DNA from: an uncultured Lachnospiraceae bacterium
GTDB taxonomy: Bacteria; Bacillota; Clostridia; Oscillospirales; CAG-272
Reading direction: 5' to 3'
Assembly (NCBI GenBank): GCA_964562175.1
Contig: CAZLRV010000003.1
Location: forward strand, 15,001 to 79,000
DNA length: 64,000 bases
Shown here: one piece after another, positions 13,357 to 61,390 of the stretch
How the letters are laid out: each line of letters starts with the position of its first letter
How positions within the stretch are numbered: the first letter of the stretch is position 1
The notes under the pieces: model-generated
The model's database searches: none
Seen by the model: only the letters and a program-made list of their open reading frames with translations
What the model was told of the DNA's origin: nothing
Made by a program: the position numbers and the translations under genes

Positions 13357-13388
13357 CGTATGTGAATACTGTTTTTACGGGTGTTTTT

Positions 13389-14729
13389 ATGAAAAAAACA
13401 AAGATCGGATTCGTTTCTCTCGGCTGTACGAAAAATCAAATAGATGCCGAGCATATGATGTTTCTGCTCGACTGTGCGGGCTATGAGCTTGTTGCGGAGG
13501 AGAGCGAGGCGGATATAGTTGTAATAAACACGTGTGCATTTATAGAGAGTGCCAAGAAAGAATCTATAGAGAATATCATAGATATAGGCTGGCTGAAGGA
13601 AAATGCAAGGTGCAAAAAAATAATCGTGACGGGCTGTCTTGCCGAGCGTTACCGAGATGAGGTACTTGAGCAGATGCCGGAGGTCGATTGCGTTGTCGGA
13701 ATCGGCTGTAACGAGAACATTGTCGATATAATAGGTCGTGTGTGCGAAGGCGAGCGTTTTTCATGCTACGACGAAAAGGAAAAATTGACTCTCGGCGGCG
13801 GACGTGTGCTGACAAGTCCGGGCTACAGCTCATATATCAAGATAGGCGAGGGCTGTGACAACCGCTGTACCTACTGTGCCATTCCGCATATAAGAGGCCC
13901 GTTCCGTTCCCGTCCCATGGAGGATATCGTTGACGAGGCGGTAAGTCTTGAAAACGACGGAGCCGTTGAGATCTCGCTCATTGCACAGGATACGAGCCGA
14001 TACGGCATAGACCTTTACGGTCATTACTCGCTTGCCGAGCTTATAGAAAAGATCACGGCGGCAACGAAAAGGGTCAAACTGAGATTGCTTTATTGCTACC
14101 CGGATAAAATAACGGACGAGCTTATAGTAGTGATAAAGAACAACGATCGTGTCGTTAAATATCTCGATCTGCCTATTCAGCACATATCGGACAAAATGCT
14201 CACGGCAATGAACCGCCACGGCAGCTCGGAACTTATAAAAAGCGTTATAGCAAAGCTGAGAAATAGTATCCCCGATATTGTTCTGCGTACCACTGTTATT
14301 GTCGGCTTCCCCGGTGAGAGCCAAGAGGATTTTGAGCTTTTATGCGACTTTGTAAAGGAAACGAGGTTTGAACGCTTCGGCGCATTTACCTACAGCCGTG
14401 AGGAGGATACGGAGGCGTATGACCTGCCCGAGCAGATAGACGAGCAAACGAAGCAAGACAGATACGACCGTATCATGGCACTTGCCTGCGATATAAGCAA
14501 TGCGTACAACGAGTCGCGCCTCGGCAACACATACGATGTTTTGTGCGAGGGCTACGACGTGCCTGCCGGCTGTTATGTCGGCCGTACATATGCCGATGCA
14601 CCCGATATTGATTGCAAGGTGTTTTTCGATGTAGGTGGCAGACGAGGCTTGCATAATGAGGGCGATGTTGTCAGAGTCAAGATAACGGATCACGACGATT
14701 ACGACCTGATAGGTATATCCGTGAAATAA
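13389..14729 (+). CDS. rimO: ribosomal protein S12 methylthiotransferase
   Basis: MKKTKIGFVSLGCTKNQIDAE N-terminus, radical-SAM CDNRCTYCAIP motif and a TRAM-like C-terminus. The track's GTG start at 13362 was rejected because it lies at or upstream of the predicted TSS. Confidence 0.9.
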   Translation: MKKTKIGFVSLGCTKNQIDAEHMMFLLDCAGYELVAEESEADIVVINTCAFIESAKKESIENIIDIGWLKENARCKKIIVTGCLAERYRDEVLEQMPEVDCVVGIGCNENIVDIIGRVCEGERFSCYDEKEKLTLGGGRVLTSPGYSSYIKIGEGCDNRCTYCAIPHIRGPFRSRPMEDIVDEAVSLENDGAVEISLIAQDTSRYGIDLYGHYSLAELIEKITAATKRVKLRLLYCYPDKITDELIVVIKNNDRVVKYLDLPIQHISDKMLTAMNRHGSSELIKSVIAKLRNSIPDIVLRTTVIVGFPGESQEDFELLCDFVKETRFERFGAFTYSREEDTEAYDLPEQIDEQTKQDRYDRIMALACDISNAYNESRLGNTYDVLCEGYDVPAGCYVGRTYADAPDIDCKVFFDVGGRRGLHNEGDVVRVKITDHDDYDLIGISVK

Positions 14730-31049: not shown

Positions 31050-31102
31050 CAAAAAATATTCCCGACAGATAGACCTGTACAGATCGCCCTGTCGGGAATA
31101 TT
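31050..31102 (-). terminator. strong rho-independent terminator closing the PqqD-giant-peptide operon
   Basis: 14-bp perfect arms aatattcccgacag (31055-31068) and ctgtcgggaatatt (31089-31102). A U-run on the minus strand corresponds to plus-strand A-run 31050-31056. It lies 13 nt after the stop of the 76-aa ORF. Confidence 0.8.
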
Positions 31103-31115
31103 TCATTTTATGAGT

Positions 31116-31346
31116 TTATGAGTTCACTATGACCGTGATCGTATGATAGCACGTTCCGTCGTACTCCGGACCCATCATTTCGCCGTAATCGCCTTCGCAT
31201 CCTTCTGTGGCAGAGTTAAATGCATTCCACTGTTCTTTTGCCATAGCTATCCAATCGTCTCCGCAGGATCCTGCGATTTTCGTTGTCAGCTCGAATTCCT
31301 CGAACTGTACCGTAGGAACAATATAAGCTTTTTTCATATTCTTCAT
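31116..31346 (-). CDS. 76-aa acidic, three-Cys peptide (candidate RiPP-like precursor or RRE ligand)
   Basis: A GAGGAG RBS sits 8 nt upstream, and the ORF starts 21 nt after the giant gene's stop. Sequence: MKNMKKAYIVPTVQFEEFELTTKIAGSCGDDWIAMAKEQWNAFNSATEGCEGDYGEMMGPEYDGTCYHTITVIVNS. Confidence 0.6.
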   Translation of the reverse strand: MKNMKKAYIVPTVQFEEFELTTKIAGSCGDDWIAMAKEQWNAFNSATEGCEGDYGEMMGPEYDGTCYHTITVIVNS

Positions 31347-31367
31347 TTCAACTGCTCCTCTCGGAAA

Positions 31368-34300
31368 TTATTCTTCAACCGTAATAGTCTTAACAACGTT
31401 CATGGGTGACTCTCTGCCGTCCTTGTCAAGTGCGGTAAACGTGTACTTGTAAGTACCCGCCTCAAGCACTCCGAGGTCAACACTCATCATCGCCTTTTCG
31501 CCGTAAGCTACCGTGTTCTGCGATACTATCTCAACTTCGTTGCCGTTTTCATCAACTGCCTTTACGCTCGTTGCGTTTGCACTTGCTATAACGCTTACGA
31601 CAACATTCTCGCCGTACTCGTATGCAACTGCCGCCGATACGGAATCGATCGTGATATTCTCATTGATCTGATATCCCTCGTTAGCCGCAAGCATTACGCC
31701 CATTACGCTCTTAACGATTTCCGCATCCAAGCTTGTCGCAACCGCACCGCCCTTTACAACGTCACCCAAATTGAATTCCTCAAGCGTACATCCCGCATAT
31801 TTAATGTTGGATACGCTGACAACGGAATCCTCATCGTCGCCGTTTCTGTCGAGCATTACGATAACGGTATACGAGCCGTCAACGTTGTTAATGCACTTGC
31901 TTACATCTATAGAGTGGTACATAGCCGTGTAAGAGGTTATCTTAGTCGAAGTAGCAGGTAAGGTCAATTTTTCGGTAGCTATATCGTAGCCGACATATTC
32001 ATACCAACCAAGGTCATTACCCGATGCCTTCTTTGCCTCTATCTCAAGCACTACATCCTCTACACTTACGCCGTCATTGGGAAGTACTCTGAATACCAAC
32101 GCATTTCTGTTGCCCATGAGGTAGACCTCATTGTTAGGACCGACATTCGCATAGCTGTAAGTGCCGTCGCTATCGGAGAACGACCATTCGCCGTCCTTAA
32201 GTTCATCCTTCCAATACGTGTCGATACGCTCAACAACGGAGTTACCTGCAGAGAAGCTTACCTGCGTTCCCGTTCCGTCGCCCGTAGGAACGAAATCAAC
32301 TATTCCTACCGTGGGATTGTTCTTAAGAATGTTTGCACGAAGCTCCTCGATAGTAACATTCTGTTCTTTATAATGGTTGGTAATATTACTGTCGTTCTTT
32401 ACCGGATCGTAAATTCTTACACCGTCAAGGTAGAATCTCGTACCCTTGCCGTTTACAGGCTTTGAAACGTAGATTTCAACCGTGTACTCGTTGTAAGGCA
32501 AATCACGTATGCTTATTATCGGCACCTGATCGAGATGTCCGTTTACATACTGCGTGATGACGATCTTCTGTTTTTCTATATCACCGTTGTTCTTTTTGAC
32601 AACTACACGTACCATTGCGGATGAAAGGTTCGTGAAGCTTATCAGCTCAAAGCCCGTACCGTTAAAGGTGAATGTTGCGTTCTTATTTGCTCCGCTGTAA
32701 TCCGTTGCGTCCGTGTACAGTGCCGCATATGTTCCGTTACTGAAGTTGTAGTTGTTACCTACACCGTCAAAGCCGCCGATACCTTTCTTGAAGGTGTAGC
32801 CGCCAAGACCTGTGTACCATTTGAACTGGCTGTTTTTTTCAATCGTGTCAACGGTCGTCGTATCGTCGAGGTAAGACTTATCATATCCGTAATTCTCGTT
32901 TTGATTCGAGGACTGAGTATTTTGTGTCGTACCTGTGACCTTGCCTGTGTTCAAGCCGTTACTATAAACTATCGAACCGATATTCTCCTCGTAATATACG
33001 ACATATGCAGGTACAAAGCTTATCTTCTTGTACATCTGAATACCGTATTTTACGGAATACTTTTGAGCGTTATCGGTAGACTGACAAGTTTCGTCGGTAA
33101 TACCTACCGCCACGTAAACATCATCCGAACCATGCAAGAACTTCGAGGGTGTGTAAGTCAGGGGCGTAGCAGCTGCGGCAGTCGAACCGGCAGTGCCTGC
33201 AAATGAACCGTATGTTCCGGTTTCACTGAAATTGCTCGTGTAGCCCTCAACCGTACCGCTTGTCGTAGCGGTGGGCGCACTCTTCTTGAAGCCCAATATT
33301 TCTCTAAGCTCGTCGCCGTTTGTCGACAAGCTCAACGTGTCACCACTGCCGCCCAAATAAGGCGTACCGTCTTTCTCACCGGGATCGGCATATACCGTAA
33401 CCGGCAAGCCGTAGTCAAGTACATACGTTACATCACTCAAGCCGTACGTAAATACCGTTACACCGTAAGGACCGAATTTCTGAACCTGCTGTGTAGTCGG
33501 GTCTTGGGCAATCAACGTAAAGAAGTATGACGTTGTACCCGTGTTCTTAACATTCGAGGTGACCTTAGTGTCTGAAATATTATATCCGTCTTGATATGCA
33601 CCCGAAAGTGTCGTACCCGCTGTGATCTTGTGATCTCCGCTCGTTATCTTGTTCTTGTTCGCATCACTGATGTAAACACCTATCGTGTTGTCTTTCTTCA
33701 ATGCTCCGTATGTCGAGCTTCCTATTCTCGTGCTGTCGCTTATTACATCCGTAATGCTGTAAGTACGGTTGTGGTCCTCCCAAAGGTATATCCACAGATC
33801 CGATATGTTTACAACGAACTGTGCGTTACCCTCAAGCGCCTTGTACTGTCCACCGCCCTGATCGAACTGTGAACGTACACTTACCGTATTTACAAATGTA
33901 TTTTGGTCGATATTTGACTGAGTAAGGTAGTATATAACTCCCTTGATCGTCATTTTTTGTCCCGACGTTATACCTTTCTTAAGTACAGATTTTGCACTTC
34001 CCAAATCGAGATTTGAGTAGGTATTGACCGTCTTGCCTGTCGAATCCGTTATTATTATTGTAAGCTCGCTGAGCTGTCTGTTTGTCGTGCTTCCGCCCTT
34101 GGGAGTATATGAACCAAGCTCACATCTCCATGAGGAATCGCTTGCATTGTCATATCCGAGCGCAAATCCGAGAGCCGAATCCGTAAACTGCATATATTCG
34201 ATCTTGTTACTCGTGTCCTTTGAAATGTTCTCTGCCGAGAAGGTATATTGAAGCTTGTCGGAATCCTGTACGTTGTCACCGAACTCCAGCTGCTCGCCTT

Positions 34301-37300
34301 CAAGATAGCAATCCTTTTCAACAGGCATATCCGGAGATGAAAGACGAATGTTTGTCTGTATTGCAAAGTTTGCCGCAATACCGTGACGCTCCATGTAGAA
34401 GAATCTGAACTCATAGCTCTCGCCCTCAACAAGTCCGAGCTTGTTCTTTACGTCGTTTACGTAAAGCTCAACATCCGTACGTGAGTGAGCGCCGCCTATA
34501 TCAAGCACAAGTTGATTGTTGATAAAGAGGTAAACGTCATCGTCTCCCATGAATCGGAAGTAAAGGTTATCCGCTTCGTGATAAACGAATGCCGCATGAC
34601 CTTCCATTGAGAAGTTGTAGTTAAAGCCGGTATATCTATCACCGAAAGGAGAGTTGATCGTAGTTGCATCCTCACCGAGATAGAAAGGATCCGTGTCGCC
34701 GTAGCCAAGCGCTGTTTTGCTTCCGCCCATTCCCTGCATTGAATTTCTGCTTGAACCCAAGGGGTTAAACATATAGTTATAGTCCGGAAGGGGTGATACT
34801 CTTGTTTGACCATTCTTTATCTTATAGTAAGGAGTCGAAACCGTCTGGGTATTGTAGATGGACTTGCTTTCCTCGTCGTATTTTGTGCCGGCAAATCCGG
34901 AGCTGAATGTGTAGTTATACTTACCGTTGTTATCGACGCTTCGTACAAGTGCGAGGTTGTTATAGTTGCTTATCTCCATGCTGTAGCCCGTGCCGGTAAC
35001 ATTTCTATTTTGGTCTTGACCGGTGACATAGAGGCTGTTGAGCATATAGAGTGCAACATCCATGCAGGTGAAGCTGCCCTTGGCGCCGTTTTTGAAATTG
35101 CTGAGATTGTAATTTCTGCTCTTGGCGGTATTGTAATCGCCTACTTCATAATGTGCATATGCACCGAACAGACCGTTTGCCGTGCTGTCATTGAGCTTTG
35201 ATCTGAGAAGTGCCGCAAAATCTTTTCCCTTACCGTAAAGCTCGTCGTTTACCTCGCCGATTATCATATTGTGGTGCAAGTAGCCCTTGGCATACGCTGA
35301 ATTCTGGGTGCCTTCCTTAAGTGCATAAGCTAAGACATTTGCCAAAAACTCAACCGTACCCTGCTTGTATACGGGCTTTCCGTTTACAAGTGTAGCCTCG
35401 GTAAGTCCCTGTACCGCTATACCGCGTATAAGAGTACCGTAGCTCGTATTAACACGATTGCTGACATTATAAGAAGTGGCGTGTTGCAAATAATTCTGAG
35501 AGCCCGGTCTTATCGTACCTGTGCCGTTAATACCGAATAGATACGCATCGTCGGTCTTCGTGAAATTAGCGGTATAGTTATCATTGCCGTTTCCTGTGGT
35601 TTTCTGCTCCAATGCAAGACCGAAAGCAATATGGTTGCTCCGCTGTTGTGCATAATCAACGACGGGGTTGTAGAAGGTAGCGTAAAATTTGCAATATGCT
35701 TTTTGCTCCTCTACGCTCTTGCTTGAACCGTCTTTCTTGGAATATTGCAAGAATGCGACCGCACCGCAATCGAGTGTACTGCCGTTTGAGCTTGAAACAT
35801 ATATTTGACTGCCCTTCCAGTTCATCGCTTTCAATTCAACGGCAGCTGTGTGCCATTGACCGTCATTTCTTACATCCGGTATCTCAAGTCTCATCGATGA
35901 TTCTATCGTAAAGTTGTCCCGTCTCGTCTCAACATTCAAATACAGCTTATCAGCCCCTGTTTTATAACGCACGTTTGCGTAGTATACGGCTTGGTCGTTT
36001 ACCGTACCCAAGTCATCCAAGGTCAGACCATTTCTATTGTAGGCATACAAGAATATCATTTGCTGGTCGTATTTGTCACGATATGTGTGTGAGTTCGCAT
36101 CACCGCCGCTTGACCAGCCCGCAGTGTATGTTCCTTCAAAATCGGCGTAGTTCATTGCCGCAACGGAGCATATCTTAAGAGTTCCGGAATAGTCGAGCTT
36201 AAAGCCATATGCATCTGAGCCTGTTGCGATCTTGATGAACAGATCGTGCCATTTGTTATCTTTATATATCTTATAGTCCGATGCACTTGATGCAATCGCG
36301 TTACCATTTGTGTCCGTATAACGTGCGGTTATGCTCGTAACATCGGAGGTCTTATAGCGGACTCTCATATATCTGTGCGTGCTGATTGTCAAAGTCTGTT
36401 GTTTACCTACCGCATTCCATTTCTTTGAAAAACCGTTCGTAAAGCTGTGATACGGGTAATAAGCATCGTCCGTTGCCATTTGACTGCCGTTATCGTTAAT
36501 ACATATGGCAACATATTGAATGTCAATGGTGCTGCCATTGTTATTCCCGTTATCGGTAAAGTCAAACCATATTTTTTTAATGTTGCCGGTCCAATTGGCA
36601 TTGCTTTTCATATTGAATACAAGATTGTGCCAATTTCCGTCTTTGTTAAGCGACTTTCCGACACGTTTTCCACCATCACGTCCACCGTCACCGTTTTGGA
36701 AGAATATACCCATATCGGACGCATTGGTATTTGAAGTTTTGTATCTGACAACTATACTTCCGTAGTTATCCGCCTTAAGTTCTTTACCTATGCTTCCGAA
36801 ATCGGCAAGAATGTAAGCATCTCCGTTTGAAACTTCTGTCTCAAATGTATAATAATCGCCGTTCGCATCGTATGTCGAACTGTATTTACCATCGGGATAA
36901 GAGGTGCCGTTTACATTCTTTGCCAATGTTACGAATCGAGTATACTCATAATTGTAATCGTATAATGCCTCGTTTTGTGAAACTCTGGCGGCTTTCGGGT
37001 CGATCTTACCGTAATCGCGGCGCAACACCTCATCCCTTGTTGCATTGTATTCTATCTGATATTTACCAAACCACATTTCGTTGAACTCAAAGAGCATACC
37101 GTCGGCGGCATAGTCTCTTATCGTTATGGGGAGGTAAATAGCGTCGTTCGTCGTTACCTGATTGTAACCGTTGACTCTCGCAACATCAGCTTCGTTTGTG
37201 GAATCATATGATTGAGCGGTGAAATTATCCAAGCACATCTCGGAATTTTCACCCGAGTCGCCGCGGCTTACAAAGCAGAAACGGCTGTAGTTACGGATAA

Positions 37301-38369
37301 GTGAATTGTCGACCGTTGTCAGCTCGATACCGCCGGCATCCTTTACGGAGCAGGTTCTGTAATACATACTTGTATCGTCTGTGATAGCAGCTTTTTCGGC
37401 AAAGGTTATGGTTTTTTCGTCGGCACCGGTCTGAGCCAAAAGGTGCGTCTTCATGCCGAGCGTACCGTAATTTCTGCCCTCGATGATAAAAAGCAATCTG
37501 CCGTTGAGATAGAATGTTATCGTTGCAAGGCTATTGTATATCTCTTTATTGCTCGACGGATTCAAATACTCACGACCGTTGTCAACTATTCTGTAGTCGT
37601 TCCACTGGGTAAGATCCTCCTGGACTTGGAAATTAACAAACACGTTGTCGACATATCTGTTCGAATAGCCGCTTCCGGTAAGTGCCTTTTTTATTACCAG
37701 TGTAAGTGTATGCTTACCCGATACCCAAAGGCCTATACCCGAGCCGCCGATGAATTTCTGGGTCTGCGTATCTCCTGAGCTTACAAGCGAATCGCTCTCG
37801 TAGTAGTTCAACGTAGCATAGTTAGGCTTTCTATACGCCTCAAAGTCTCCGGAGTCGCCTCTGAAAAAGAATGCGTTAGGGCTTGTGACGGATGTAACCG
37901 CCGATTTATACCGGAAGTTCAGCTCATAGCCCTGAGCTGCGTTTTTGTTGTTCGTTACGGCGTAGAAATTCGTTATCATCTGGAAATATTCATTTCCGTC
38001 GATCTTTAAATATTTCGAGCCGTCGGCACTGCCCTCCGAGGTAATGTAACCGGGGTTATTTCCCGAGCTTCCATTTGCTATAGTCGGAGTGAAGTAGTTC
38101 CAACCGCTTGCGCCGTGCGTTGCGTTTGATTTTTTTGTCATTATCGATTGTCCTTCCGCATCGCCGGCAAGATCGAAGGACAGATCTGCCCACTTGTCGT
38201 TATCAGAGTCTATAAAAGTCTTTGCGCTTGCGGGTCGTCCTATGGCTTCTCGTTCAAAGCCCGGTATCGTTCCGCTGTATGTATATGCAAGCATATCAAC
38301 GGGAAGCGATGTAGCGAGCATTATTGCCGTGAGGACACAGGCAAACAAGCGCAGCTTAAATCTCTTCAT
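31368..38369 (-). CDS. 2333-aa secreted giant protein with a fibro-slime/PA14-like domain, a LamG-like N-terminal region, and repeated beta-sandwich modules
   Basis: Strong RBS AGGAGG and signal peptide MKRFKLRLFACVLTAIMLATSLPVDMLA. Core FRFMGDDDVYLFINNQLVLDIGGAHS...YEFRFFYMERHGIAANFAIQTNI matches the fibro-slime (TIGR02148-type) signature from memory. I see no LPXTG, SLH, dockerin or C-terminal TM. Confidence 0.85.
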   Translation of the reverse strand: MKRFKLRLFACVLTAIMLATSLPVDMLAYTYSGTIPGFEREAIGRPASAKTFIDSDNDKWADLSFDLAGDAEGQSIMTKKSNATHGASGWNYFTPTIANGSSGNNPGYITSEGSADGSKYLKIDGNEYFQMITNFYAVTNNKNAAQGYELNFRYKSAVTSVTSPNAFFFRGDSGDFEAYRKPNYATLNYYESDSLVSSGDTQTQKFIGGSGIGLWVSGKHTLTLVIKKALTGSGYSNRYVDNVFVNFQVQEDLTQWNDYRIVDNGREYLNPSSNKEIYNSLATITFYLNGRLLFIIEGRNYGTLGMKTHLLAQTGADEKTITFAEKAAITDDTSMYYRTCSVKDAGGIELTTVDNSLIRNYSRFCFVSRGDSGENSEMCLDNFTAQSYDSTNEADVARVNGYNQVTTNDAIYLPITIRDYAADGMLFEFNEMWFGKYQIEYNATRDEVLRRDYGKIDPKAARVSQNEALYDYNYEYTRFVTLAKNVNGTSYPDGKYSSTYDANGDYYTFETEVSNGDAYILADFGSIGKELKADNYGSIVVRYKTSNTNASDMGIFFQNGDGGRDGGKRVGKSLNKDGNWHNLVFNMKSNANWTGNIKKIWFDFTDNGNNNGSTIDIQYVAICINDNGSQMATDDAYYPYHSFTNGFSKKWNAVGKQQTLTISTHRYMRVRYKTSDVTSITARYTDTNGNAIASSASDYKIYKDNKWHDLFIKIATGSDAYGFKLDYSGTLKICSVAAMNYADFEGTYTAGWSSGGDANSHTYRDKYDQQMIFLYAYNRNGLTLDDLGTVNDQAVYYANVRYKTGADKLYLNVETRRDNFTIESSMRLEIPDVRNDGQWHTAAVELKAMNWKGSQIYVSSSNGSTLDCGAVAFLQYSKKDGSSKSVEEQKAYCKFYATFYNPVVDYAQQRSNHIAFGLALEQKTTGNGNDNYTANFTKTDDAYLFGINGTGTIRPGSQNYLQHATSYNVSNRVNTSYGTLIRGIAVQGLTEATLVNGKPVYKQGTVEFLANVLAYALKEGTQNSAYAKGYLHHNMIIGEVNDELYGKGKDFAALLRSKLNDSTANGLFGAYAHYEVGDYNTAKSRNYNLSNFKNGAKGSFTCMDVALYMLNSLYVTGQDQNRNVTGTGYSMEISNYNNLALVRSVDNNGKYNYTFSSGFAGTKYDEESKSIYNTQTVSTPYYKIKNGQTRVSPLPDYNYMFNPLGSSRNSMQGMGGSKTALGYGDTDPFYLGEDATTINSPFGDRYTGFNYNFSMEGHAAFVYHEADNLYFRFMGDDDVYLFINNQLVLDIGGAHSRTDVELYVNDVKNKLGLVEGESYEFRFFYMERHGIAANFAIQTNIRLSSPDMPVEKDCYLEGEQLEFGDNVQDSDKLQYTFSAENISKDTSNKIEYMQFTDSALGFALGYDNASDSSWRCELGSYTPKGGSTTNRQLSELTIIITDSTGKTVNTYSNLDLGSAKSVLKKGITSGQKMTIKGVIYYLTQSNIDQNTFVNTVSVRSQFDQGGGQYKALEGNAQFVVNISDLWIYLWEDHNRTYSITDVISDSTRIGSSTYGALKKDNTIGVYISDANKNKITSGDHKITAGTTLSGAYQDGYNISDTKVTSNVKNTGTTSYFFTLIAQDPTTQQVQKFGPYGVTVFTYGLSDVTYVLDYGLPVTVYADPGEKDGTPYLGGSGDTLSLSTNGDELREILGFKKSAPTATTSGTVEGYTSNFSETGTYGSFAGTAGSTAAAATPLTYTPSKFLHGSDDVYVAVGITDETCQSTDNAQKYSVKYGIQMYKKISFVPAYVVYYEENIGSIVYSNGLNTGKVTGTTQNTQSSNQNENYGYDKSYLDDTTTVDTIEKNSQFKWYTGLGGYTFKKGIGGFDGVGNNYNFSNGTYAALYTDATDYSGANKNATFTFNGTGFELISFTNLSSAMVRVVVKKNNGDIEKQKIVITQYVNGHLDQVPIISIRDLPYNEYTVEIYVSKPVNGKGTRFYLDGVRIYDPVKNDSNITNHYKEQNVTIEELRANILKNNPTVGIVDFVPTGDGTGTQVSFSAGNSVVERIDTYWKDELKDGEWSFSDSDGTYSYANVGPNNEVYLMGNRNALVFRVLPNDGVSVEDVVLEIEAKKASGNDLGWYEYVGYDIATEKLTLPATSTKITSYTAMYHSIDVSKCINNVDGSYTVIVMLDRNGDDEDSVVSVSNIKYAGCTLEEFNLGDVVKGGAVATSLDAEIVKSVMGVMLAANEGYQINENITIDSVSAAVAYEYGENVVVSVIASANATSVKAVDENGNEVEIVSQNTVAYGEKAMMSVDLGVLEAGTYKYTFTALDKDGRESPMNVVKTITVEE
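34345..34640 (-). other. fibro-slime / PA14-like core (about aa 1245-1340 of the giant protein)
   Basis: GFNYNFSMEGHAAFVYHEADNLYFRFMGDDDVYLFINNQLVLDIGGAHSRTDVELYVNDV...GESYEFRFFYMERHGIAANFAIQTNIRL. Codons were verified against the DNA at 34321-34380 and 34501-34560. Confidence 0.7.
35745..36857 (-). repeat. three divergent protein-level modules of about 100-125 aa ('RYKT' modules) inside the giant protein
   Basis: Shared signatures are SIVVRYKTS...DGNWHNLVF, YMRVRYKTS...DNKWHDLFI and YANVRYKTG...DGQWHTAAV, with RYK at about aa 542, 671 and 801. Confidence 0.6.
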
Positions 38370-38472
38370 AAAATTTCCTCCTAATTCGTTTTAAGAAAGA
38401 ATGTTTCATCTATTTTAATCGGTCGCATCGGCTGTCACGCCGTGCGTACCGTTATGTAAGTTATCGAGGAGT

Positions 38473-38739
38473 CTACTCAGTCAGCAGGCCTTTAAGTCTG
38501 AGCATACGCAGCATCTTTTCGATATCGTCCTCGGCTTGATCCTTTTCCACCTCGTACTCATCGCACAAGAGCCGCACAAGCTCATCCGTTGTAACATCCT
38601 CGCCCAAGCGTTGCATTATCAGCGCACCTGATTCGGATGTGGTGATAATACCCTCATACGGATCGGAGCATGAGTTTACGGCAACAAAAACATATTCTCC
38701 CGCTATCTTTTTCATAACGAGCTTTTGTCTTAATCGCAT
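38473..38739 (-). CDS. PqqD-family (RiPP recognition element-like) small protein
   Basis: 88 aa: KKIAGEYVFVAVNS...GIITTSESGALIMQRLGEDVTTDELVRLLCDEYEVEKDQAEDDIEKMLRMLRLKGLL. This fits the PF05402 pattern (bound strand, then a winged helix with a 'YdV..e.a..Dv..fl..L...gli' tail). An AAGGAGGG RBS lies 7 nt upstream. Confidence 0.75.
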   Translation of the reverse strand: MRLRQKLVMKKIAGEYVFVAVNSCSDPYEGIITTSESGALIMQRLGEDVTTDELVRLLCDEYEVEKDQAEDDIEKMLRMLRLKGLLTE

Positions 38740-38773
38740 ACCTCTACCCTCCTTCGTATAATTTTACGGAGAT

Positions 38774-38802
38774 ATTGTATCATACAAAATATAATTTGTC
38801 AA
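38774..38802 (-). promoter_or_regulatory. consensus-like sigma-A promoter of the PqqD-giant-peptide operon
   Basis: On the minus strand: TTGACA (38802-38797), 17-nt spacer, TACAAT (38779-38774). The -10 element ends 34 nt upstream of the PqqD-like ATG. Confidence 0.7.
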
Positions 38803-53219: not shown

Positions 53220-54188
53220 TTAAAGCTTGTCTCTGAATATCTTCGGTGTTCTCTTATAGCTGAGCCGTCTCTTGTTTAGATTCTTTTCGTGATTTTCCGC
53301 ACAATAGTATCTTATGCGGCAAAGCGCTTCATCTCTCGGCTTGTCAAATACCGATATTAAGAATTTTTCCAACTCATCATACAGCTTGACGACGTGTTGT
53401 CCGTCATTCAAAGGGCAACACATAAGCATTTTTACGTATTCCTCATCGTTTTCGTCAAGCTGTTTTATTTTTTCTATCACATTGTCGATATCACCCACGC
53501 CCGAACATTCTATAAACGAGTCCTTGTTGAAATCAAGCCCTATCGCACTGCTTCCGTAATATATGGGTATGGAATGAAACCTGAACGAGTCCACGAGCTT
53601 TTCGGTAACGAAGCCCGGATAATGAATGCTGTCGGCGGCAATTGTAAATTTAGAGCTTAACAAATACTCATGCTTTTCTCGCCAATTACAGCCATTTGTT
53701 CCGACGTTGTTCAAATACGCACCGAATGATGTGACCTTTTTGTATTTTTCGGATATTTCATAAAACAGCCTTTCGCGTATCTCGTGGCTTGATCTATGGC
53801 GATATATAAAATTACAGAAGTACTTCTTTTGCTTCAATATTTCATACGCCCTCTCCTCCGTCAGCTCCTCCGGTACCCACGGTGTGGCATCATCGAAGTA
53901 AAACGCAAACGGCAGTCTGAAATATCTGCCCGGAAAATCAATCAGATCGAAGCCTATCACATAATCGAATACGGTGAAATCGGGAGATAGGTTCTCACCC
54001 ATAAACATAATTCTGACACAGTCGTATTTCATATACTCAAACGGCGTACAGCGGTTTGAGCATATAACAAAATCCGGTTCATCGCTTATTTCGACATTAA
54101 AATGTCTTTGCAGTATTCTGACAAAAAGATTGTCGTTCTTTTTGAAGCTTCCCCAAAAACCGCAAAAATCGACCTTTATCGTTTTCAT
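53220..54188 (-). CDS. glycosyltransferase family 10 (alpha-1,3/4-fucosyltransferase-like), paralog A
   Basis: 322 aa. KKYFCNFIYRH..., KFTIAADSIHYPGFVTEKLVDSFRFHSIPIYYGS and DFNKDSFI align by eye with the H. pylori FutA core (KFNLCFENTQGYGYVTEKIIDAYFSHTIPIYWGS...DFNPKSFV). It has a basic C-terminal tail. Confidence 0.8.
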   Translation of the reverse strand: MKTIKVDFCGFWGSFKKNDNLFVRILQRHFNVEISDEPDFVICSNRCTPFEYMKYDCVRIMFMGENLSPDFTVFDYVIGFDLIDFPGRYFRLPFAFYFDDATPWVPEELTEERAYEILKQKKYFCNFIYRHRSSHEIRERLFYEISEKYKKVTSFGAYLNNVGTNGCNWREKHEYLLSSKFTIAADSIHYPGFVTEKLVDSFRFHSIPIYYGSSAIGLDFNKDSFIECSGVGDIDNVIEKIKQLDENDEEYVKMLMCCPLNDGQHVVKLYDELEKFLISVFDKPRDEALCRIRYYCAENHEKNLNKRRLSYKRTPKIFRDKL

Positions 54189-54209
54189 ATCATTTACACC
54201 TCTGCATGA

Positions 54210-55223
54210 TCACCTTATTCGCAATAGCTTTCTTATTTTTCGGGTTAGCTTTCTTTTCTTCTTAAATTTCAGATGATATTCTCTGTACTGATCCAAGCAA
54301 TTGTTATATCTATCTGCGGCAAACTCTCTTACACGTCTTATTCTTTGCTCTCTCGGTCGTGAGGTAATGTTGAGTAAAAAGCTCTCAAGCTCATCGTATT
54401 TCTTCTTTATGTGGTCGTATGAGGGCAAGGGGCATTTCATAAGCATATCCATGTACGCCTCATCGTCGTTGTCAAGCCGAATGACCTCATTGACAACTCT
54501 TTCGATATCGTCCACACCCTTACATACTATACAAGCGTCCGTGTTGAAATCTCTGCCTATTTCGGGATTGCCGAAATATATGGGTATTGAATGATTCATA
54601 AAAGCGTGCGTTATTTTCTCGGTAACAAAGCCGGGATACGATATGCTGTCAACGGCTATGGTAAACTTCGAGTTCTTTACTATCTCATACTTTTCCTTGT
54701 AATCGATATTTTTATTGCTTGTAATGCCTTTTTCCACGGCGTTGTTGAGATACGGTCCTGCGGATGTTACCTCTTTATATTCGTTTAATGCATCAAATAA
54801 CTTTTTTCGCATTCCATGGTTCGGCTCATGATTATATATGAAATTGCAAAAATACTTCTTTTCCTTCATTATTCTTTCCGCATCCTCGCGTGTCAGCTTT
54901 TGGGGGATATACGATCCCTCATCGCGAATATACGCAAACGGCATTCTGATATATCTGTCGGAGAAGGTAATAAAATCAAAGCCCATGACGTAGTCAAACG
55001 AGGTGAAATCGGGCGAAATGTTTTCGCATATTTCCATAAGTCTGGGGCAATCCCGATATTTTGCCCATTGAAACGGATCACCCAAATTTCCGGCAATAAC
55101 AAGGTCGGGAGATTCGTCACACAGCTCAACATCATAATATTTACTGTAAATTTGATAATACAAGCTTACCTTTGGCTTGAGAGCGCTATAAAAATTACAA
55201 AATTTGATTTTTAATTTTTCCAT
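54210..55223 (-). CDS. glycosyltransferase family 10 (fucosyltransferase-like), paralog B
   Basis: 337 aa, roughly 45% identical by eye to paralog A. KFTIAVDSISYPGFVTEKITHAFMNHSIPIYFGN. The C-terminal tail HLKFKKKRKLTRKIRKLLRIR is very basic. Confidence 0.8.
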   Translation of the reverse strand: MEKLKIKFCNFYSALKPKVSLYYQIYSKYYDVELCDESPDLVIAGNLGDPFQWAKYRDCPRLMEICENISPDFTSFDYVMGFDFITFSDRYIRMPFAYIRDEGSYIPQKLTREDAERIMKEKKYFCNFIYNHEPNHGMRKKLFDALNEYKEVTSAGPYLNNAVEKGITSNKNIDYKEKYEIVKNSKFTIAVDSISYPGFVTEKITHAFMNHSIPIYFGNPEIGRDFNTDACIVCKGVDDIERVVNEVIRLDNDDEAYMDMLMKCPLPSYDHIKKKYDELESFLLNITSRPREQRIRRVREFAADRYNNCLDQYREYHLKFKKKRKLTRKIRKLLRIR

Positions 55224-57035: not shown

Positions 57036-58112
57036 ATGAATATCAATGAAACCTCCGAGCTTTGGCATTATCTTGCAAATACCACACGTCCGATATTGCT
57101 TTACGGTATGGGCGACGGTGCGGACAAGATAATAAACGAGCTGGCAAAATACGGAAAGAGTGTTGACGGCATATTCGCCTCGGATGAATTCGTTCGCGGA
57201 CAGCGCTTTCATGACATGACCGTGCAGACACTGTCACAGCTTGAGCGGGTATTTTTCGAGCCGATCATTTTACAAGCCTTTGCCTCAAGTCTGCCATCGG
57301 TTCTCGAACATATTGATGAGTTGAGCCGACGGTATGAGTACTACGTCCCCGATGTTCCCGTTTTCGCATCGGACGTTTTCAATATGGAGTTTTTCCGAAA
57401 AAACGAATGTAAGCTCGATGAGGTCTATTCCCTGCTCTGCGATGACGAATCGCGCCGAGTACTTGAGGGGATATTAAATTACAAGCTGAGCGGACGCATT
57501 GAATATTTGCGCGGTACGGAGTGCGAGCTTGACGGCTTTATAGCAGAGAATCTGCCTGTTTGCAAATACCGCACCTATTGTGACGGCGGTGCATACCGAG
57601 GCGAAAGCTCGCTCGGCGCCGTAAAGCTTTTCCCAAACCTTTCAAGCATATACGCCTTTGAGCCGGATCCGTCCTCGTTCAAAAAGCTGTCCTCCGTCGA
57701 TTTCGGTGAAAAAGTCGATGTCAAGCTTTTTAACGGCTCACTCGGCTCACATGACGGACTTTGCGATTTTGTCGTTCGGAAAAACCGCTCCTCCTCGCTT
57801 CTCTCATCACGCACGGAAGCTGACGGCAAGCATATACGCACGATCCGTCAGTACGCTCTCGACTCCGTTGTCGCCGACGATAACTGCTTTGTAAAGCTCG
57901 ATGTTGAGGGAAACGAATACGAGGCACTGCTCGGATGTGAGGGTCTTATAAAAAAAGGCTGTGATATGCAAATATCTCTTTACCATAAAAGCGAGGATAT
58001 TTTCGCCCTGCCCTTACATATACATTCGGTAGATCCCACCTATAGACTGTACATTCGCAGGATCCCGTATATTCCGCCGTGGGATATCTCACTTTTCGCA
58101 ATACATAATTAA
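57036..58112 (+). CDS. FkbM-family SAM-dependent methyltransferase
   Basis: 358 aa. The C-terminal half (YCDGGAYRGES...IYAFEPDP...FVKLDVEGNEYEALLG) matches the FkbM methyltransferase domain pattern. Confidence 0.75.
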   Translation: MNINETSELWHYLANTTRPILLYGMGDGADKIINELAKYGKSVDGIFASDEFVRGQRFHDMTVQTLSQLERVFFEPIILQAFASSLPSVLEHIDELSRRYEYYVPDVPVFASDVFNMEFFRKNECKLDEVYSLLCDDESRRVLEGILNYKLSGRIEYLRGTECELDGFIAENLPVCKYRTYCDGGAYRGESSLGAVKLFPNLSSIYAFEPDPSSFKKLSSVDFGEKVDVKLFNGSLGSHDGLCDFVVRKNRSSSLLSSRTEADGKHIRTIRQYALDSVVADDNCFVKLDVEGNEYEALLGCEGLIKKGCDMQISLYHKSEDIFALPLHIHSVDPTYRLYIRRIPYIPPWDISLFAIHN

Positions 58113-58132: not shown

Positions 58133-59845
58133 ATGCATAACCGACGTTTTTTTACAAAGGCACTGCTTTGCTTTGTTCTTTCGCTTACACTCTGCCTGTC
58201 CGTTTTCACATTTACGGCAGGGGCTGAGCGTGAGCAGGATAAGGCTCTGCTGTCCGTACACGCATCGAATACAAATCCCAAGCCCGGCGACACCATCACC
58301 GTAACGGTGAAAATAGATAACTATGTATCAATGGTGCCGTTTATCTCCGCAATGCATATCGATATAGGCTACGACGCCGATATCTTCGAATTTGCCGATG
58401 TCGAATGCTTGCTTAACGTGAACACCGACGATGCAGTGGGCTTGAATGAAGACGGTGGTGTTGTATCGTTTTATTACGTTTATTCTCACAACAAGCCGCT
58501 TGACAAAATATCCGATTTTAAGATATTTTCTTTCGATCTCACAGTCAAGGAAACGGTCAGTGTGAATACGGCTACAACATTTGATGTTAAGAAATGTGTG
58601 TTGTACAACAACAATGACAAATACTCGGTCATAGGTTGTCAATCGCCGATGCTCGTTGACGAGCTGAACATTTGGGCAAGCTCCGCCGCCCTGCTCATGA
58701 ACGGAAGTGAGGAGAACAAGGGCAGCTACACTACCTCCGTTAAGCTCGATTTCAAGTCACCCTCGGCACAGCTTACGAGAAACTCCGGCAGTGTTATGAC
58801 GATAGAATCCGGCTACAGTTGCGTACATAACGGAAATTACAAGCTCACCCTCACCGTTGACGGTAAGAGCGTTGAGCAAAGCTTTACGATAAACAAAAAA
58901 GTCGCCTCCGTCGGCGTTGTTTATGATCCGCTGTTCAACGACCTTGAATTTATGGTCGGTGTGGATCCGAGCGTATATTTCTCACGAGGCACGGTCAAGG
59001 TCACATATTCCGATGAAACCTCGGGCGATCTGCCTCTGTCCGATTCCGACTTCAAAATAACCGGCTACAATATGAATATGCCCGGTGAGCAGACGGTAAC
59101 GATCGAATATTACGGTGTAAAGACCTCGCACACGATAACATTTGTCGAAAAGGGTATTGCCTCGGTAAGCATTGACGGTGCGCTTAAATACAATCAATTT
59201 CTCGTAAACGACCCGATCGAAACCTCCGGTATCACGCTTAACGTGAGATTTGACGACGGCTCAACAGATAACGCTCCGATAAACGCCGATATGATTACGT
59301 ACAATAACGCAATAGGCGCACAGAGCGTAACGGTAAAATACGGCACATACGAATATAAGGATGCTTTTTCCGTTACTTTCGTTTCACGTGAACGCTTCGA
59401 CAGCTTCAAAACGGGTCTTGATGCACTCGACTTGTCAACGCTTACAACAGCCGACGCCGAACGTGTGACTGCACTCGTTCAGCTTTACAACTCGTTTGAT
59501 GAGGTTGAAAAGCGTGCTTGCACCGAGGATATGAGAAGTAAGCTTGCTTCCGCCCGTGCCGCCGTCGGCTCGACCGAACCGACCACTCCTACAGCGAGTG
59601 CGGCTGTTAGTGAGGACAACTCGAACGATTCCTCCGGCTCATCAAAATGGTTGATAATAGTAATAATAGTTATCGTAGTTCTTGCGGCTCTTGCGGGCGG
59701 TGGATATTTCCTGCTTGCATATCTGAAACGCAAGCGCGAGGATTCAGAGGAATACTACTACGACGAGAACGAAACGAATGTCTACGAAGACGATTTTCTG
59801 CCTAAATTCGATGAAAACGACAAGGAGGACGATGATGAAGAATAA
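58133..59845 (+). CDS. surface protein: signal peptide, cohesin-like domain, Ig-like repeats, Thr/Pro/Ser linker, C-terminal TM anchor and acidic cytoplasmic tail
   Basis: 570 aa. LLSVHASNTNPKPGDTITVTVKIDNYVSMVPFISAMHIDIGYDADIFEFADVE resembles the cohesin N-terminal strands. GEQTVTIEYYGVKTSHTITFV is an Ig-like (group 3 type) repeat. The TM helix is WLIIVIIVIVVLAALAGGGYFLLAYL. Confidence 0.6.
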   Translation: MHNRRFFTKALLCFVLSLTLCLSVFTFTAGAEREQDKALLSVHASNTNPKPGDTITVTVKIDNYVSMVPFISAMHIDIGYDADIFEFADVECLLNVNTDDAVGLNEDGGVVSFYYVYSHNKPLDKISDFKIFSFDLTVKETVSVNTATTFDVKKCVLYNNNDKYSVIGCQSPMLVDELNIWASSAALLMNGSEENKGSYTTSVKLDFKSPSAQLTRNSGSVMTIESGYSCVHNGNYKLTLTVDGKSVEQSFTINKKVASVGVVYDPLFNDLEFMVGVDPSVYFSRGTVKVTYSDETSGDLPLSDSDFKITGYNMNMPGEQTVTIEYYGVKTSHTITFVEKGIASVSIDGALKYNQFLVNDPIETSGITLNVRFDDGSTDNAPINADMITYNNAIGAQSVTVKYGTYEYKDAFSVTFVSRERFDSFKTGLDALDLSTLTTADAERVTALVQLYNSFDEVEKRACTEDMRSKLASARAAVGSTEPTTPTASAAVSEDNSNDSSGSSKWLIIVIIVIVVLAALAGGGYFLLAYLKRKREDSEEYYYDENETNVYEDDFLPKFDENDKEDDDEE

Positions 59846-60578
59846 GATAATTTCCTCGGTTGCTTTGGTTCTGGCACTGCTTATCTGCTTGACCACCATC
59901 GTATTTGCGGAGCCTGATGCCTCGATATCCGTTTCCTTTGACAAGGAAACATATACCGTCAAGATCGGCTCAAGCCTTAAGGTAGCCGCAACGGTATCCG
60001 ACACGTCTGTTACGCTTACCTACAAGATAACCGAAAATGAAAAGGTCGCTTCCGTTGACTCCGAGGGCAATGTAACGGGCAAAAAGGAAGGCACGGCAAA
60101 AATAGGCGCTTTTGTCGGCGATGTGGAGTATGCCACGGCTTATATAAAGGTCGAAAAAGCAAAGCTTTCCGTAGTCGAGGGCGACGGTGCGTCATATTTG
60201 CGCGGCTTTGATGTCGGCTCGACTATTGACACCTGCCAAGGTGATATCGCCGAATATCTCGGCGTTGAGAAGATACTTGTAAATATCTACAAGACAGACG
60301 AGTCTCTTGCCGCCACGAACGATATTATAGCAACGGGTATGAGCATTGAGGTCGGCGGTGAAAAGTATTCCGCTATCATAATGGGCGATGTAAACGGCGA
60401 CGGCGTAATAGATTACACCGATACCGCGGCGGCTGTTAAATACCTCTCCGGTGAGGAATATGTAAGCAATCCCGTTTTCAGGGATGCCGCAATAGTAACG
60501 GGAAGTGAGCTTGACATCGAATGCGTGCTTCTTATCTCCCGACACATTGAAAACAGAAGCAAGATCTCACAAAGCTGA
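59832..60578 (+). CDS. secreted Big_2-domain protein with a C-terminal dockerin-like module
   Basis: Start at ATG 59832/59835 behind AAGGAGG, overlapping the upstream gene by 11-14 nt. It has a signal peptide and a Big_2 segment (VASVDSEGNVTGKKEGTAKIGAF). GDVNGDGVIDYTDTAAAVKYL is a canonical dockerin F-hand, and the second repeat is degenerate. Confidence 0.65.
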   Translation: MMKNKIISSVALVLALLICLTTIVFAEPDASISVSFDKETYTVKIGSSLKVAATVSDTSVTLTYKITENEKVASVDSEGNVTGKKEGTAKIGAFVGDVEYATAYIKVEKAKLSVVEGDGASYLRGFDVGSTIDTCQGDIAEYLGVEKILVNIYKTDESLAATNDIIATGMSIEVGGEKYSAIIMGDVNGDGVIDYTDTAAAVKYLSGEEYVSNPVFRDAAIVTGSELDIECVLLISRHIENRSKISQS

Positions 60579-60646: not shown

Positions 60647-61390
60647 TTACAGAATTTTCGCAAGGAAGCTTTTCAGACGGTCTGATGACGGAGCTTCGAA
60701 TATTCGTGTCGGTGTTCCCTCTTCGATTATTCTACCCTCGTCCATAAATATTACCCTGCTTCCGACTTCACGGGCAAAGCCCATTTCGTGAGTAACTACT
60801 ATCATTGTCATACCCTCGTGTGCAAGCTCACGCATAACGTCAAGCACCTCGCCGACCATTTCCGGATCAAGTGCCGAGGTAGGTTCATCGAAAAGCATTA
60901 CCTCCGGTTGCATACACAAGGCTCTGACGATTGCGATTCTTTGCTTCTGACCACCGGAGAGCTGGCTCGGATATGCATCGGCTCTTTCGAGCAAGCCTAC
61001 GCGAGATAACATCATTCTCGCATAGCTCTCCGCCTCTGCCTTTGTTTTATGAAGCAGCTTCATCGGGGCTATGGTGAGGTTTTTCATTATAGTCATATTC
61101 GGAAACAGATTAAAATGCTGAAATACCATTCCCATTTTACGCCTGTGAAGATTTATATCAATATGCGGATCGGTTATATTTTCACCGTTTAAGATTATTT
61201 TACCACTTGTCGGCATTTCAAGCAGATTGAGAGAGCGAAGAAAAGTGGATTTTCCGCTTCCGGACGGTCCTATGATAACAACGACCTCGCCTCTGCGAAT
61301 TTCCGCACTGACTCCGTCAAGTGCTTTTACGGTACCCTTGTTGTAATGCTTTTTCAAATCGTCAACCTTTATCAATATATTACCGTTCAC
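60647..61390 (-). CDS. amino-acid ABC transporter ATP-binding protein
   Basis: 247 aa with Walker [10 protein letters not shown], signature LSGGQKQR and Walker [12 protein letters not shown]. GlnQ/ArtP-like. Confidence 0.9.

Follow-up and report, generated by a model that had tools for sequence, protein, structure and literature searches.

A PqqD-like gene and a RiPP-like peptide gene flanking a giant exoprotein gene form a reduced member of an apparently undescribed cassette family of gut Clostridia

The three genes examined here, coding for a PqqD-family protein, a giant secreted protein and a small cysteine-containing peptide, are real and co-inherited, and they are a stripped-down member of a large, apparently undescribed family of gut and rumen Clostridia gene cassettes. 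In 92 of the 100 loci compared, the peptide gene starts within 40 nt of a large same-strand gene, and most loci with enough downstream sequence also carry predicted peptide-modifying enzymes that are missing here. The trio lies in a 64,000-nucleotide stretch of DNA (the window) of an uncultured Lachnospiraceae bacterium (contig CAZLRV010000003.1, assembly GCA_964562175.1). The observation made in the initial annotation, three closely spaced genes between a promoter and a terminator without a nearby maturase, was confirmed. Its interpretation was only partly supported; it treated the trio as a self-contained oddity.

Results

All features of the locus are on the minus strand. The first ORF (38473-38739) encodes 88 aa, the second (31368-38369) 2333 aa and the third (31116-31346) 76 aa, with spacers of 103 nt and 21 nt. 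The strong ribosome-binding sites GGAGGG, AGGAGG and GAGGAG are each found 7-8 nt before the ATG. A sigma-70-type promoter, TTGACA-17-TACAAT with a TG extension (38774-38802, 11 of 12 matches), is located about 35 nt upstream of the PqqD-like ATG. In the diverged relatives L010, L011 and L012 (L numbers designate loci of the family) the -35 box is invariant and the -10 box conserved, although synonymous sites are saturated between these lineages. An intrinsic terminator (31050-31104) directly follows the peptide gene. Its hairpin of about 22 paired bases at about 31104-31053 is followed by six U (dG -29.5 kcal/mol, z = -5.4, 0 of 200 shuffles folding as well). A simple terminator scan missed it, possibly because the hairpin does not fit the short-loop model of that scan.

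The initial annotation proposed a single transcription unit, and this is likely but not proven, as the 103-nt spacer is not structure-free. It holds a stable hairpin at about 38420-38451 (dG -26.4 kcal/mol, z = -4.0 for the folded spacer) without a U-run, which may be an attenuator or a processing or stabilising element. Different hairpins occupy the same position in L010, L011 and L012, followed by a conserved TTTTCTT element and the ribosome-binding site. It is conceivable that this hairpin stops most transcripts after the PqqD-like gene and that the giant and peptide genes are expressed from another, unrecognised start. In L124 the peptide-PqqD pair has its own promoter and follows a terminator after the giant gene, so the modules can be transcribed separately. 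However, we consider two transcription units unlikely in the window, since no U-run follows its hairpin and the scan found no promoter-like site in the spacer. This possibility concerns only expression and does not change what the genes are.

The 88-aa protein belongs to the PqqD (RRE-type) family, with 50.6 bits to PF05402 against a cut-off of 23.4, covering 65 of 67 model positions. Its best NCBIfam matches are lasso, HPr-rel-A and PQQ-type PqqD chaperones, all below their cut-offs. The 2333-aa protein has an N-terminal Sec-type signal peptide and no recognisable wall or membrane anchor. Its only significant domains are fibro-slime (TIGR02148, 82.4 bits against a cut-off of 45, residues 1250-1342) and PA14 (PF07691, 46.5 bits against a cut-off of 24), at residues about 1249-1347 (34329-34625). 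It has no relative in PDB by sequence, and its orthologues are 43-46% identical. The 76-aa peptide matches no Pfam or NCBIfam family, has a net charge of -7 and carries a conserved N-terminal leader (K-x-Y-x-x-P-x-V-x-F-E), three conserved Cys, a C-Y-H motif and a terminal Ser.

To determine whether a maturase is encoded nearby, the larger ORFs of the window were all annotated with Pfam. The only radical SAM protein, at 13362-14729, has UPF0004, Radical_SAM and TRAM domains and is of the RimO/MiaB type, in agreement with the initial annotation. No SPASM enzyme, YcaO, lasso cyclase, B2 transglutaminase-like protease or HprK-like protein was detected in the window, nor was a leader protease or exporter seen. 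tblastn and HMM searches with the cassette enzymes of relatives also found nothing in the window, which extends 31 kb on the promoter side and 25 kb on the terminator side of the trio.

Synteny of the three genes in related genomes, which had been named beforehand as a test of the proposal, was observed in more than one flanking context. The order PqqD-giant-peptide recurs in L010 with the same tkt and Mur-ligase flanks and in L011 with different downstream genes, while L012 has PqqD plus the giant before its contig ends. In L124 the PqqD gene has moved to just after the peptide but has stayed in the locus. In more distant relatives, giants about 29% identical are found in the order PqqD, giant, peptide, HprK-like, GH20, radical SAM/SPASM.

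In an effort to survey the family, species-representative genomes were searched with a degenerate DNA pattern for the peptide, which hit 102 loci, nearly all labelled as Clostridia (three records carry other or no family labels). In 92 of 100 loci a same-strand ORF ends no more than 40 nt upstream of the peptide gene, and in 80 of these it is BLAST-similar to fibro-slime giants. Of 61 loci with at least 3 kb of downstream sequence, 46 have both the HprK-like P-loop gene and the radical SAM/SPASM gene, 6 have one of them and 9 have neither. The radical SAM/SPASM gene is present in 47 of the 61, and a PqqD-like gene in 42. The HprK-like proteins have an intact Walker A motif (PSGtGKST) and an NGD motif. 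Some cassettes also carry an extracytoplasmic lipoprotein (here called X) or a GH20 hexosaminidase. The family occurs in the cultured strains Pseudoflavonifractor capillosus ATCC 29799, P. intestinihominis CLA-AP-H29, P. phocaeensis An569, Butyricicoccus porcorum BB10 and Mediterraneibacter glycyrrhizinilyticus An427.

The family peptides are 70-87 aa long, start within about 10-25 nt of the giant gene and have a conserved leader of about 25 residues (MKKxYxKPxIxFExFxL..IAxxC), a more variable acidic core with 3-4 Cys and a C-terminal Ser, 104 of 105 members ending in Ser. Across three subfamilies the residues Y8, P11, E16, A25, C28, C50, C66, Y67 and S76 are invariant, and the family invariants (Y8, P11, E16, A25, three Cys, C-Y, terminal Ser) are all kept in the clade of the window. 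With these residues and its 21-nt spacer, the window's peptide gene fits the family defined here.

The window belongs to a distinct clade of at least six lineages that keeps the giant and the peptide, usually with PqqD. No HprK-like or radical SAM/SPASM gene was found within the 5-17 kb of sequence on either side in L010, L011, L119, L120 and L124, and in L119 and L120, which keep only the giant and the peptide, even PqqD is absent within 10 kb. One explanation would be that the trio is a decaying remnant of a full cassette whose small genes no longer have a function, and a few other family loci (L025, L090, L104 and L117) also look orphaned or fragmented. The selection data largely refute this and make it very unlikely. 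dN/dS is 0.05-0.20 for the peptide, 0.11-0.21 for PqqD and 0.13-0.22 for the giant over saturated synonymous divergence, the reading frames are intact in at least six lineages, and promoter, ribosome-binding sites and terminator are conserved or intact.

The initial annotation also suggested that an unrecognised region of the giant protein could supply the missing enzyme. The giants of the window clade are about 800 residues longer than the 1500-aa relatives that have separate enzymes, and residues 1-900 are unique to the clade; residues 25-1000 could not be modelled with confidence (pLDDT 39). Nevertheless, this idea is not supported and we regard it as very unlikely. With a Sec-type signal peptide the protein would leave the cytoplasm, where the leader-bearing peptide is made, and it has no similarity to the radical SAM, HprK-like or GH20 proteins of the cassettes. 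The N-terminal region contains repeated beta-rich modules with a recurring VRYKT motif. The C-terminal module (residues about 1650-2250, 31620-33422) is shared with most peptide-linked giants, BLAST coverage over 77 loci peaking at residues 1750-2200, although this is partly biased because many loci hold only the C-terminal end of the giant gene. An AF2 model of residues 1600-2333 (pLDDT 69) is all beta, with predicted binding-type Ig, CBM or MAM-like sandwiches and no enzyme fold, and Foldseek matched it to MAM-Ig, CBM22, SGBP-B and CopC-like folds.

Discussion

The gene structure, the synteny, the composition of the family, the peptide invariants, the purifying selection and the kinase motifs are shown by the analysis, and we are highly confident that the trio belongs to this cassette family. 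In contrast, leader binding, peptide modification, its supply in trans, co-transcription and any partnership with the giant are inferred from sequence and by analogy. In the model that we favor, the PqqD-like protein would bind the leader and present the peptide to the radical SAM/SPASM enzyme, which would cross-link the Cys residues, probably as thioethers. The HprK-like enzyme would phosphorylate the terminal Ser, and the modified peptide would then act together with the giant exoprotein as a partner, small subunit or cofactor carrier. In the clade of the window only PqqD, the giant and the peptide remain linked, and we propose that the two enzymes act in trans from elsewhere in the genome. 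This last claim we hold to be about as likely as not. The full cassettes of relatives favor this first option of the initial annotation, a tailoring enzyme encoded elsewhere, without proving it. Several genomes carry two cassettes (L020 and L048, L061 and L106, L046 and L118), which makes supply from a second locus plausible.

The second option of the initial annotation was that the RRE-peptide pair was repurposed as a partner of the giant protein. We cannot rule out the related possibility that the pair is used without enzymes, the PqqD-like protein having been kept as a leader-binding chaperone or regulator and the unmodified peptide being itself the partner, regulator or assembly factor of the giant. 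The absence of local maturases in the whole clade, in three different gene orders, looks like a stable enzyme-free state rather than a recent split, and the giant-peptide adjacency is the most conserved feature of the family. The peptide is transcribed at the end of a 7-kb gene rather than from its own strong promoter, which is unusual for a RiPP precursor. The MAG that holds L010/L102 gave no second pattern-matching peptide locus, although this is weak evidence, since the MAG may be incomplete and the pattern is strict. No cassette of the family shows a leader protease or an exporter in its conserved part, and the peptide has no signal peptide, leaving unexplained how it would meet a secreted protein. 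Furthermore, no modification chemistry has been demonstrated for any member, and all enzyme matches are far below the NCBIfam equivalog cut-offs. However, the expected modification sites (three Cys and the terminal Ser) and the leader motif stay invariant across the clade at only 40-64% overall identity, which is hard to explain without the enzymes, and no non-enzymatic role is known for a free-standing RRE. Enzyme-free use is the main rival of the favored model, possible but less likely.

If the favored reading is right, a large group of abundant gut and rumen Clostridia couples a ribosomal-peptide modification machine to giant secreted glycan-binding proteins, some of which carry, or are linked to, GH20 hexosaminidases. 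That would link RiPP biosynthesis with host or dietary glycan foraging and adhesion, two fields usually treated separately, and would extend the roles of PqqD-type recognition proteins beyond classical natural-product clusters. The enzyme-less clade of the window is a natural experiment for asking whether modification is needed at all. A more speculative and doubtful reading is that the cassettes make a cross-linked, Ser-phosphorylated mini-protein serving as an obligatory small subunit, cofactor carrier or activity switch of giant glycan-binding or glycan-cleaving exoproteins. This would be a 'RiPP as protein subunit' system in the manner of QhpC (see below), but attached to surface or secreted lectin-like giants of gut Clostridia. 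It would be widespread (at least 100 species) and so far unnamed, and the window clade would then show that the peptide-giant partnership persists even when the enzymes are unlinked or lost.

Our searches found no curated model or paper describing this architecture, and the initial annotation likewise knew of no described system, but its parts resemble several known systems. To our knowledge, fibro-slime domain proteins (TIGR02148), described from Fibrobacter succinogenes and Dictyostelium, have not been reported with a linked peptide or RRE, and the one paper retrieved on both subjects was unrelated; the giant shares with them a fibro-slime/PA14 domain above the curated cut-off. The full relatives of the trio carry, next to a small peptide gene, the same three parts as radical SAM/SPASM cassettes defined in silico, that is, a free-standing PqqD-like protein, a radical SAM/SPASM enzyme and an HprK-like P-loop protein. 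Their best NCBIfam matches are to exactly these families (SynChlorMet cassette ScmC/ScmE/ScmF, HPr-rel-A system and GeoRSP system; TIGR04249-51, TIGR04352/3 and TIGR04302/3). However, the relatives' proteins score 17-25 bits against cut-offs of 125-200 (ScmC 21 against 125, HprK_rel_A 25 against 200) and 58-107 bits against a cut-off of 400 (ScmE/ScmF), the peptide family is different and has no model, the cassette is welded to a giant secreted protein gene, and the window itself has only the PqqD part. The PQQ and mycofactocin pathways (PqqA/D/E; MftA/B/C) also use a free-standing PqqD-family chaperone with a radical SAM/SPASM enzyme acting on a small peptide, and the relatives' radical SAM proteins match the PqqE and MftC models at 70-90 bits, below cut-off. 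The peptide here is much longer, the other pathway genes are absent and the window has no enzyme at all.

Lasso peptide systems with a B1 (PqqD) protein and an HprK-family kinase (paeninodin, pseudomycoidin) share a free-standing PqqD-like leader-binding protein, a Y-x-x-P leader motif and a terminal Ser, the residue that the kinases PadeK and PsmK phosphorylate (PMC6993621). The top NCBIfam matches of the window's PqqD are lasso models, although at 34.9 bits against a cut-off of 70 and 26.3 against 80. No lasso cyclase or B2 protease is present in the window or in any relative examined, and the core of about 50 residues is far longer than lasso cores. In the qhp operon of quinohemoprotein amine dehydrogenase, the radical SAM enzyme QhpD makes three Cys-Asp/Glu thioethers in the cytoplasm in the leader-bearing, acidic small subunit QhpC, which then joins separately exported large subunits and works as part of the extracytoplasmic protein (PMC7876137). 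As here, the small polypeptide has several Cys and is encoded beside the genes of its large exported partners. The qhp operon encodes a leader protease and an ABC exporter that are absent here, and the large partner here is a binding-type multi-domain exoprotein, not a haem dehydrogenase. Although only an analogy, with no sequence relationship seen, QhpC is the best precedent for a RiPP-like peptide acting as partner of a large secreted protein.

Organization of the Three-Gene Locus

The initial annotation had described an operon of three genes, with strong ribosome-binding sites, a near-consensus promoter, a terminator and no maturase nearby, and this observation was confirmed. All features lie on the minus strand: an 88-aa gene at 38473-38739, a 2333-aa gene at 31368-38369 and a 76-aa gene at 31116-31346, separated by spacers of 103 and 21 nt. 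Each ORF is preceded by a GGAGG-type ribosome-binding site 7-8 nt before its ATG. The promoter TTGACA-17-TACAAT, with a TG extension, was located at 38802-38774, and the hairpin that follows the peptide gene is a strong terminator (dG -29.5 kcal/mol, z = -5.4, followed by six U). The 88-aa protein passed the Pfam PqqD threshold (50.6 against 23.4 bits), and the giant protein passed the thresholds for fibro-slime (82.4 against 45) and PA14 (46.5 against 24) at residues about 1249-1347, whereas the peptide matched no curated family. The 103-nt spacer contains a stable hairpin at 38420-38451 (structure dG -26.4 kcal/mol, z = -4.0) without a U-run. Different sequences form a hairpin at the same spot in the related loci L010, L011 and L012, ahead of a conserved TTTTCTT element. 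One transcript is likely, but attenuation or processing at this site is possible.

To determine whether a maturase is encoded nearby, essentially all larger ORFs of the window were annotated with Pfam. The neighbours are housekeeping genes (a Mur ligase, cardiolipin synthase, HisRS, AspRS, transketolase, TruB and Mfd), and the one radical SAM protein, at 13362-14729, has the UPF0004 + Radical_SAM + TRAM architecture of RimO/MiaB. Two weak matches to the enzymes and proteins of related cassettes (see below) were set aside, since the hit to the model of lipoprotein X, at 62253-63020, is an SBP_bac_3 lipoprotein and the tblastn hit obtained with the HprK-like proteins, at 60647-61390, is an ABC ATPase, and both reflect signal-peptide or P-loop similarity only. 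The statement that no maturase lies nearby is therefore correct. Elsewhere in the window, two tandem GT10-family alpha-1,3-fucosyltransferase-like genes (FucT_N + Glyco_transf_10) lie on the minus strand at 53220-55223 and an FkbM-type methyltransferase lies nearby at 57036-58112, which together suggest fucosylated surface glycan synthesis. At 58133-60578 a 570-aa protein with a cohesin domain and a Big_3 domain is followed by a Big_2 protein. A dockerin-bearing lipase lies near the related locus L124. The organism therefore probably uses cohesin-dockerin assemblies, although the giant protein itself shows no dockerin.

Conservation of the Trio

Word-indexed homologue searches returned only one relative of the peptide and, for PqqD, only the near-identical (98%) cluster representative, so we turned to the gene neighbourhoods of the homologues of the giant. 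Full-length orthologues of the giant were found at 43-46% identity. L010 has the same PqqD-giant-peptide order between the same tkt and Mur-ligase flanks, L011 has the same order but a histidine kinase and response regulator downstream, and L012 has PqqD and the giant before its contig ends. Synonymous sites are saturated between these lineages, yet dN/dS is 0.05-0.20 for the peptide, 0.11-0.21 for PqqD and 0.13-0.22 for the giant, and the -35 and -10 boxes are conserved. The 76-aa ORF is therefore a real gene under selection, and absence of synteny and absence of reading-frame conservation, two conditions named beforehand as refuting the initial reading, were both excluded. Recent horizontal transfer was also considered, but the GC content of the trio (0.42-0.46) matches its flanks and gives no sign of it.

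A Larger Cassette Family

More distant giants, of about 1500 aa and about 29% identical, sit in a larger cassette with the order PqqD, giant, a 73-76-aa peptide, a 280-aa protein, GH20, then radical SAM. The 280-aa protein gave weak matches to ScmC and HprK-related kinases and has an intact Walker A motif, PSGtGKST, plus NGD. The radical SAM proteins align end to end with SPASM-type maturases (AhbD, ScmE/F, MftC, PqqE, PapB and others), always below the equivalog cut-offs. The peptides of all three groups align, with Y8, P11, E16, A25, C28, C50, C66, Y67 and the terminal Ser invariant. An alignment of seven peptides contained no stretch conserved enough to serve as a search probe.

These invariants were converted into a degenerate DNA pattern, which matched only the peptide gene in the window, with 0 matches in 100 shuffles. 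In the species-representative genome collection the pattern gave 102 stretches, nearly all labelled as gut or rumen Clostridia and including cultured strains, while three records carry other or no family labels. Among the cultured carriers, Pseudoflavonifractor capillosus ATCC 29799, P. intestinihominis CLA-AP-H29 and Mediterraneibacter glycyrrhizinilyticus An427 have full cassettes. The translated peptides form an obvious family (MKKxYxKPxIxFExFxLSxxIAAxC...C...C...CYHxP...LFNS). Gene maps were then built from our own ORF calls and small HMMs. Among non-redundant loci, a same-strand ORF ends no more than 40 nt before the peptide in 92 of 100, and 80 of these ORFs are similar to fibro-slime giants (one further upstream ORF is GH20-labelled). 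Typical giant-to-peptide spacers are 10-23 nt. Of 61 loci with at least 3 kb downstream, 46 have both the HprK-like and the radical SAM gene, 6 have one of the two and 9 have neither. Of 105 peptides, 104 end in Ser. A few family peptides among the hits of the profile search described below (P0030, P0031, P0033 and P0036) carry one or two residues after the otherwise terminal Ser (GSN, GSNA, TSV, NSI), which would matter if the Ser must be C-terminal to be phosphorylated.

The majority order is giant, peptide, lipoprotein X (about 240-290 aa), HprK-like, radical SAM/SPASM, PqqD. X was seen in 47 ORFs across the loci, usually just after the peptide gene, as a conserved protein of about 235-290 aa with an N-terminal membrane anchor or lipobox and the motifs YTGVYMEDGSDE...VTNIS...YYKN...GGITYR (for example at 2633-3364 of locus L050 and 863-1669 of locus L026). 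It has no Pfam or NCBIfam family and is absent from the window. NCBIfam release 20 has no model for the peptide or for X, and every enzyme is below every family cut-off. A PDB sequence search with an HprK-like protein gave nothing. Literature searches found nothing on this cassette: those on SynChlorMet, on HPr kinase with SPASM and a precursor peptide, on RRE with radical SAM and HprK, and on RiPPs of Pseudoflavonifractor returned no paper, and a full-text search for ScmC returned only unrelated acronyms.

Variants of the cassette were also observed. The contig of locus L016 (1-16189) carries up to three cassettes in tandem. The first is only a radical SAM fragment plus PqqD at the contig edge, the second is a full PqqD, fibro-slime giant, peptide, HprK-like, GH20, radical SAM set, and the third has PqqD, a 96-aa protein, a 282-aa HprK-like protein and a radical SAM enzyme, followed by a different giant of more than 1800 aa with BNR_2 and Big_2 domains. 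The RiPP-like module may therefore pair with more than one kind of giant exoprotein. In loci L047, L057, L071, L107 and L112, a peptide subgroup (MKKLYSKPGIVYEDFSICTHIAKTCDVELGTF...) is followed by a protein of about 600 aa instead of the HprK-like and radical SAM pair, which could be a different maturase. In L117 (Butyricicoccus porcorum BB10) the giant and GH20 genes appear fragmented into short ORFs, and in L025, L090 and L104 the peptide gene has neither a giant nor enzymes beside it, so that these are possible decayed or dispersed versions of the cassette.

The Enzyme-Less Clade

By similarity, the peptide and PqqD of the window are equally far, about 30-37% identical, from both main subtypes, whereas its giant is closest to the GH20-type subgroup. 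An exhaustive profile search with the two closest peptides found a few more clade members. Two long proteins among the hits, P0032 and P0039, are repeat proteins and were treated as spurious. A search of JGI metagenome contigs with the window-clade alignment found no relative. L124, one of the clade members, has the giant, then a terminator-like hairpin and a separate near-consensus promoter (TTGACA...TATACT; 4503-4897 of L124), then the peptide, PqqD and the Mur ligase, with PLD, HisRS and AspRS further along. It is syntenic with the window, but PqqD sits on the other side, and the small genes can therefore form their own transcription unit. L119 and L120 have the giant and the peptide only, with no PqqD within 10 kb. 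None of these loci has an HprK-like, radical SAM, GH20 or X gene. The enzyme-less state is therefore a property of a whole clade of at least six lineages and not an assembly accident.

The Giant Protein

The giant protein starts with a typical Sec-type signal peptide and ends without an LPXTG motif, a hydrophobic tail or any anchor domain. A PDB sequence search with it gave nothing. The region shared most widely with other peptide-linked giants is residues about 1650-2250, an estimate that is partly biased because many loci hold only the C-terminal end of the giant gene. An AF2 model of residues 1600-2333 (pLDDT 69) is all beta and matches MAM-Ig, CBM22, SGBP-B, CopC-like and other Ig or jelly-roll folds, with no enzyme fold. 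The model of residues 25-1000 had a pLDDT of only 39 and was not used. Some family giants contain a GH20 domain or are linked to one, from which we infer that glycan binding or degradation is the business of the giants.

Proposed Mechanism and Relation to Known Systems

The analysis establishes the parts, their linkage across about 100 species, the invariant positions, purifying selection and the absence of the enzymes around the trio, whereas function and chemistry are entirely inferred. From established knowledge of RRE-dependent RiPP pathways, we infer that PqqD binds the conserved leader and recruits the peptide to the radical SAM/SPASM enzyme, which most plausibly forms thioether cross-links at the conserved Cys residues. 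By analogy with PadeK and PsmK (PMC6993621), the HprK-like P-loop protein would phosphorylate the invariant terminal Ser. The near-universal, tightly spaced giant-peptide gene pair, and the analogy with QhpC and QhpD (PMC7876137), suggest that the product works with the giant protein rather than as a free antibiotic, although there is no leader protease, no exporter and no signal peptide on the peptide, so that no model explains how the peptide would meet a secreted protein. For the window itself we favour, with moderate confidence only, modification by enzymes encoded elsewhere in the genome, because the leader, the Cys residues, the terminal Ser and the PqqD gene all remain under selection. 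We cannot rule out the main rival, enzyme-free use of the pair, which we regard as possible but less likely.

The interpretation given in the initial annotation is thus supported only in part. The trio is not an isolated orphan but is the enzyme-less branch of a large, uncurated cassette family that pairs a giant exoprotein with a RiPP-like peptide. This family-level association is surprising, and it is testable in cultured strains. A lasso-peptide reading was considered because of the Y-x-x-P motif, the best PqqD matches and the terminal Ser, and was rejected because no cyclase or B2 protease was found anywhere in the family.

Among known systems, the cassette works, as far as can be inferred, most like the in-silico-defined radical SAM/SPASM + PqqD + HprK-like cassettes (SynChlorMet, HPr-rel-A), but it falls below their thresholds and has a different peptide. 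It shares the B1 protein, the kinase and the terminal Ser with phosphorylated lasso peptides, but lacks the cyclase and the protease. Its logic resembles that of the qhp operon, without any shown homology, and the giant is a bona fide fibro-slime/PA14 protein.
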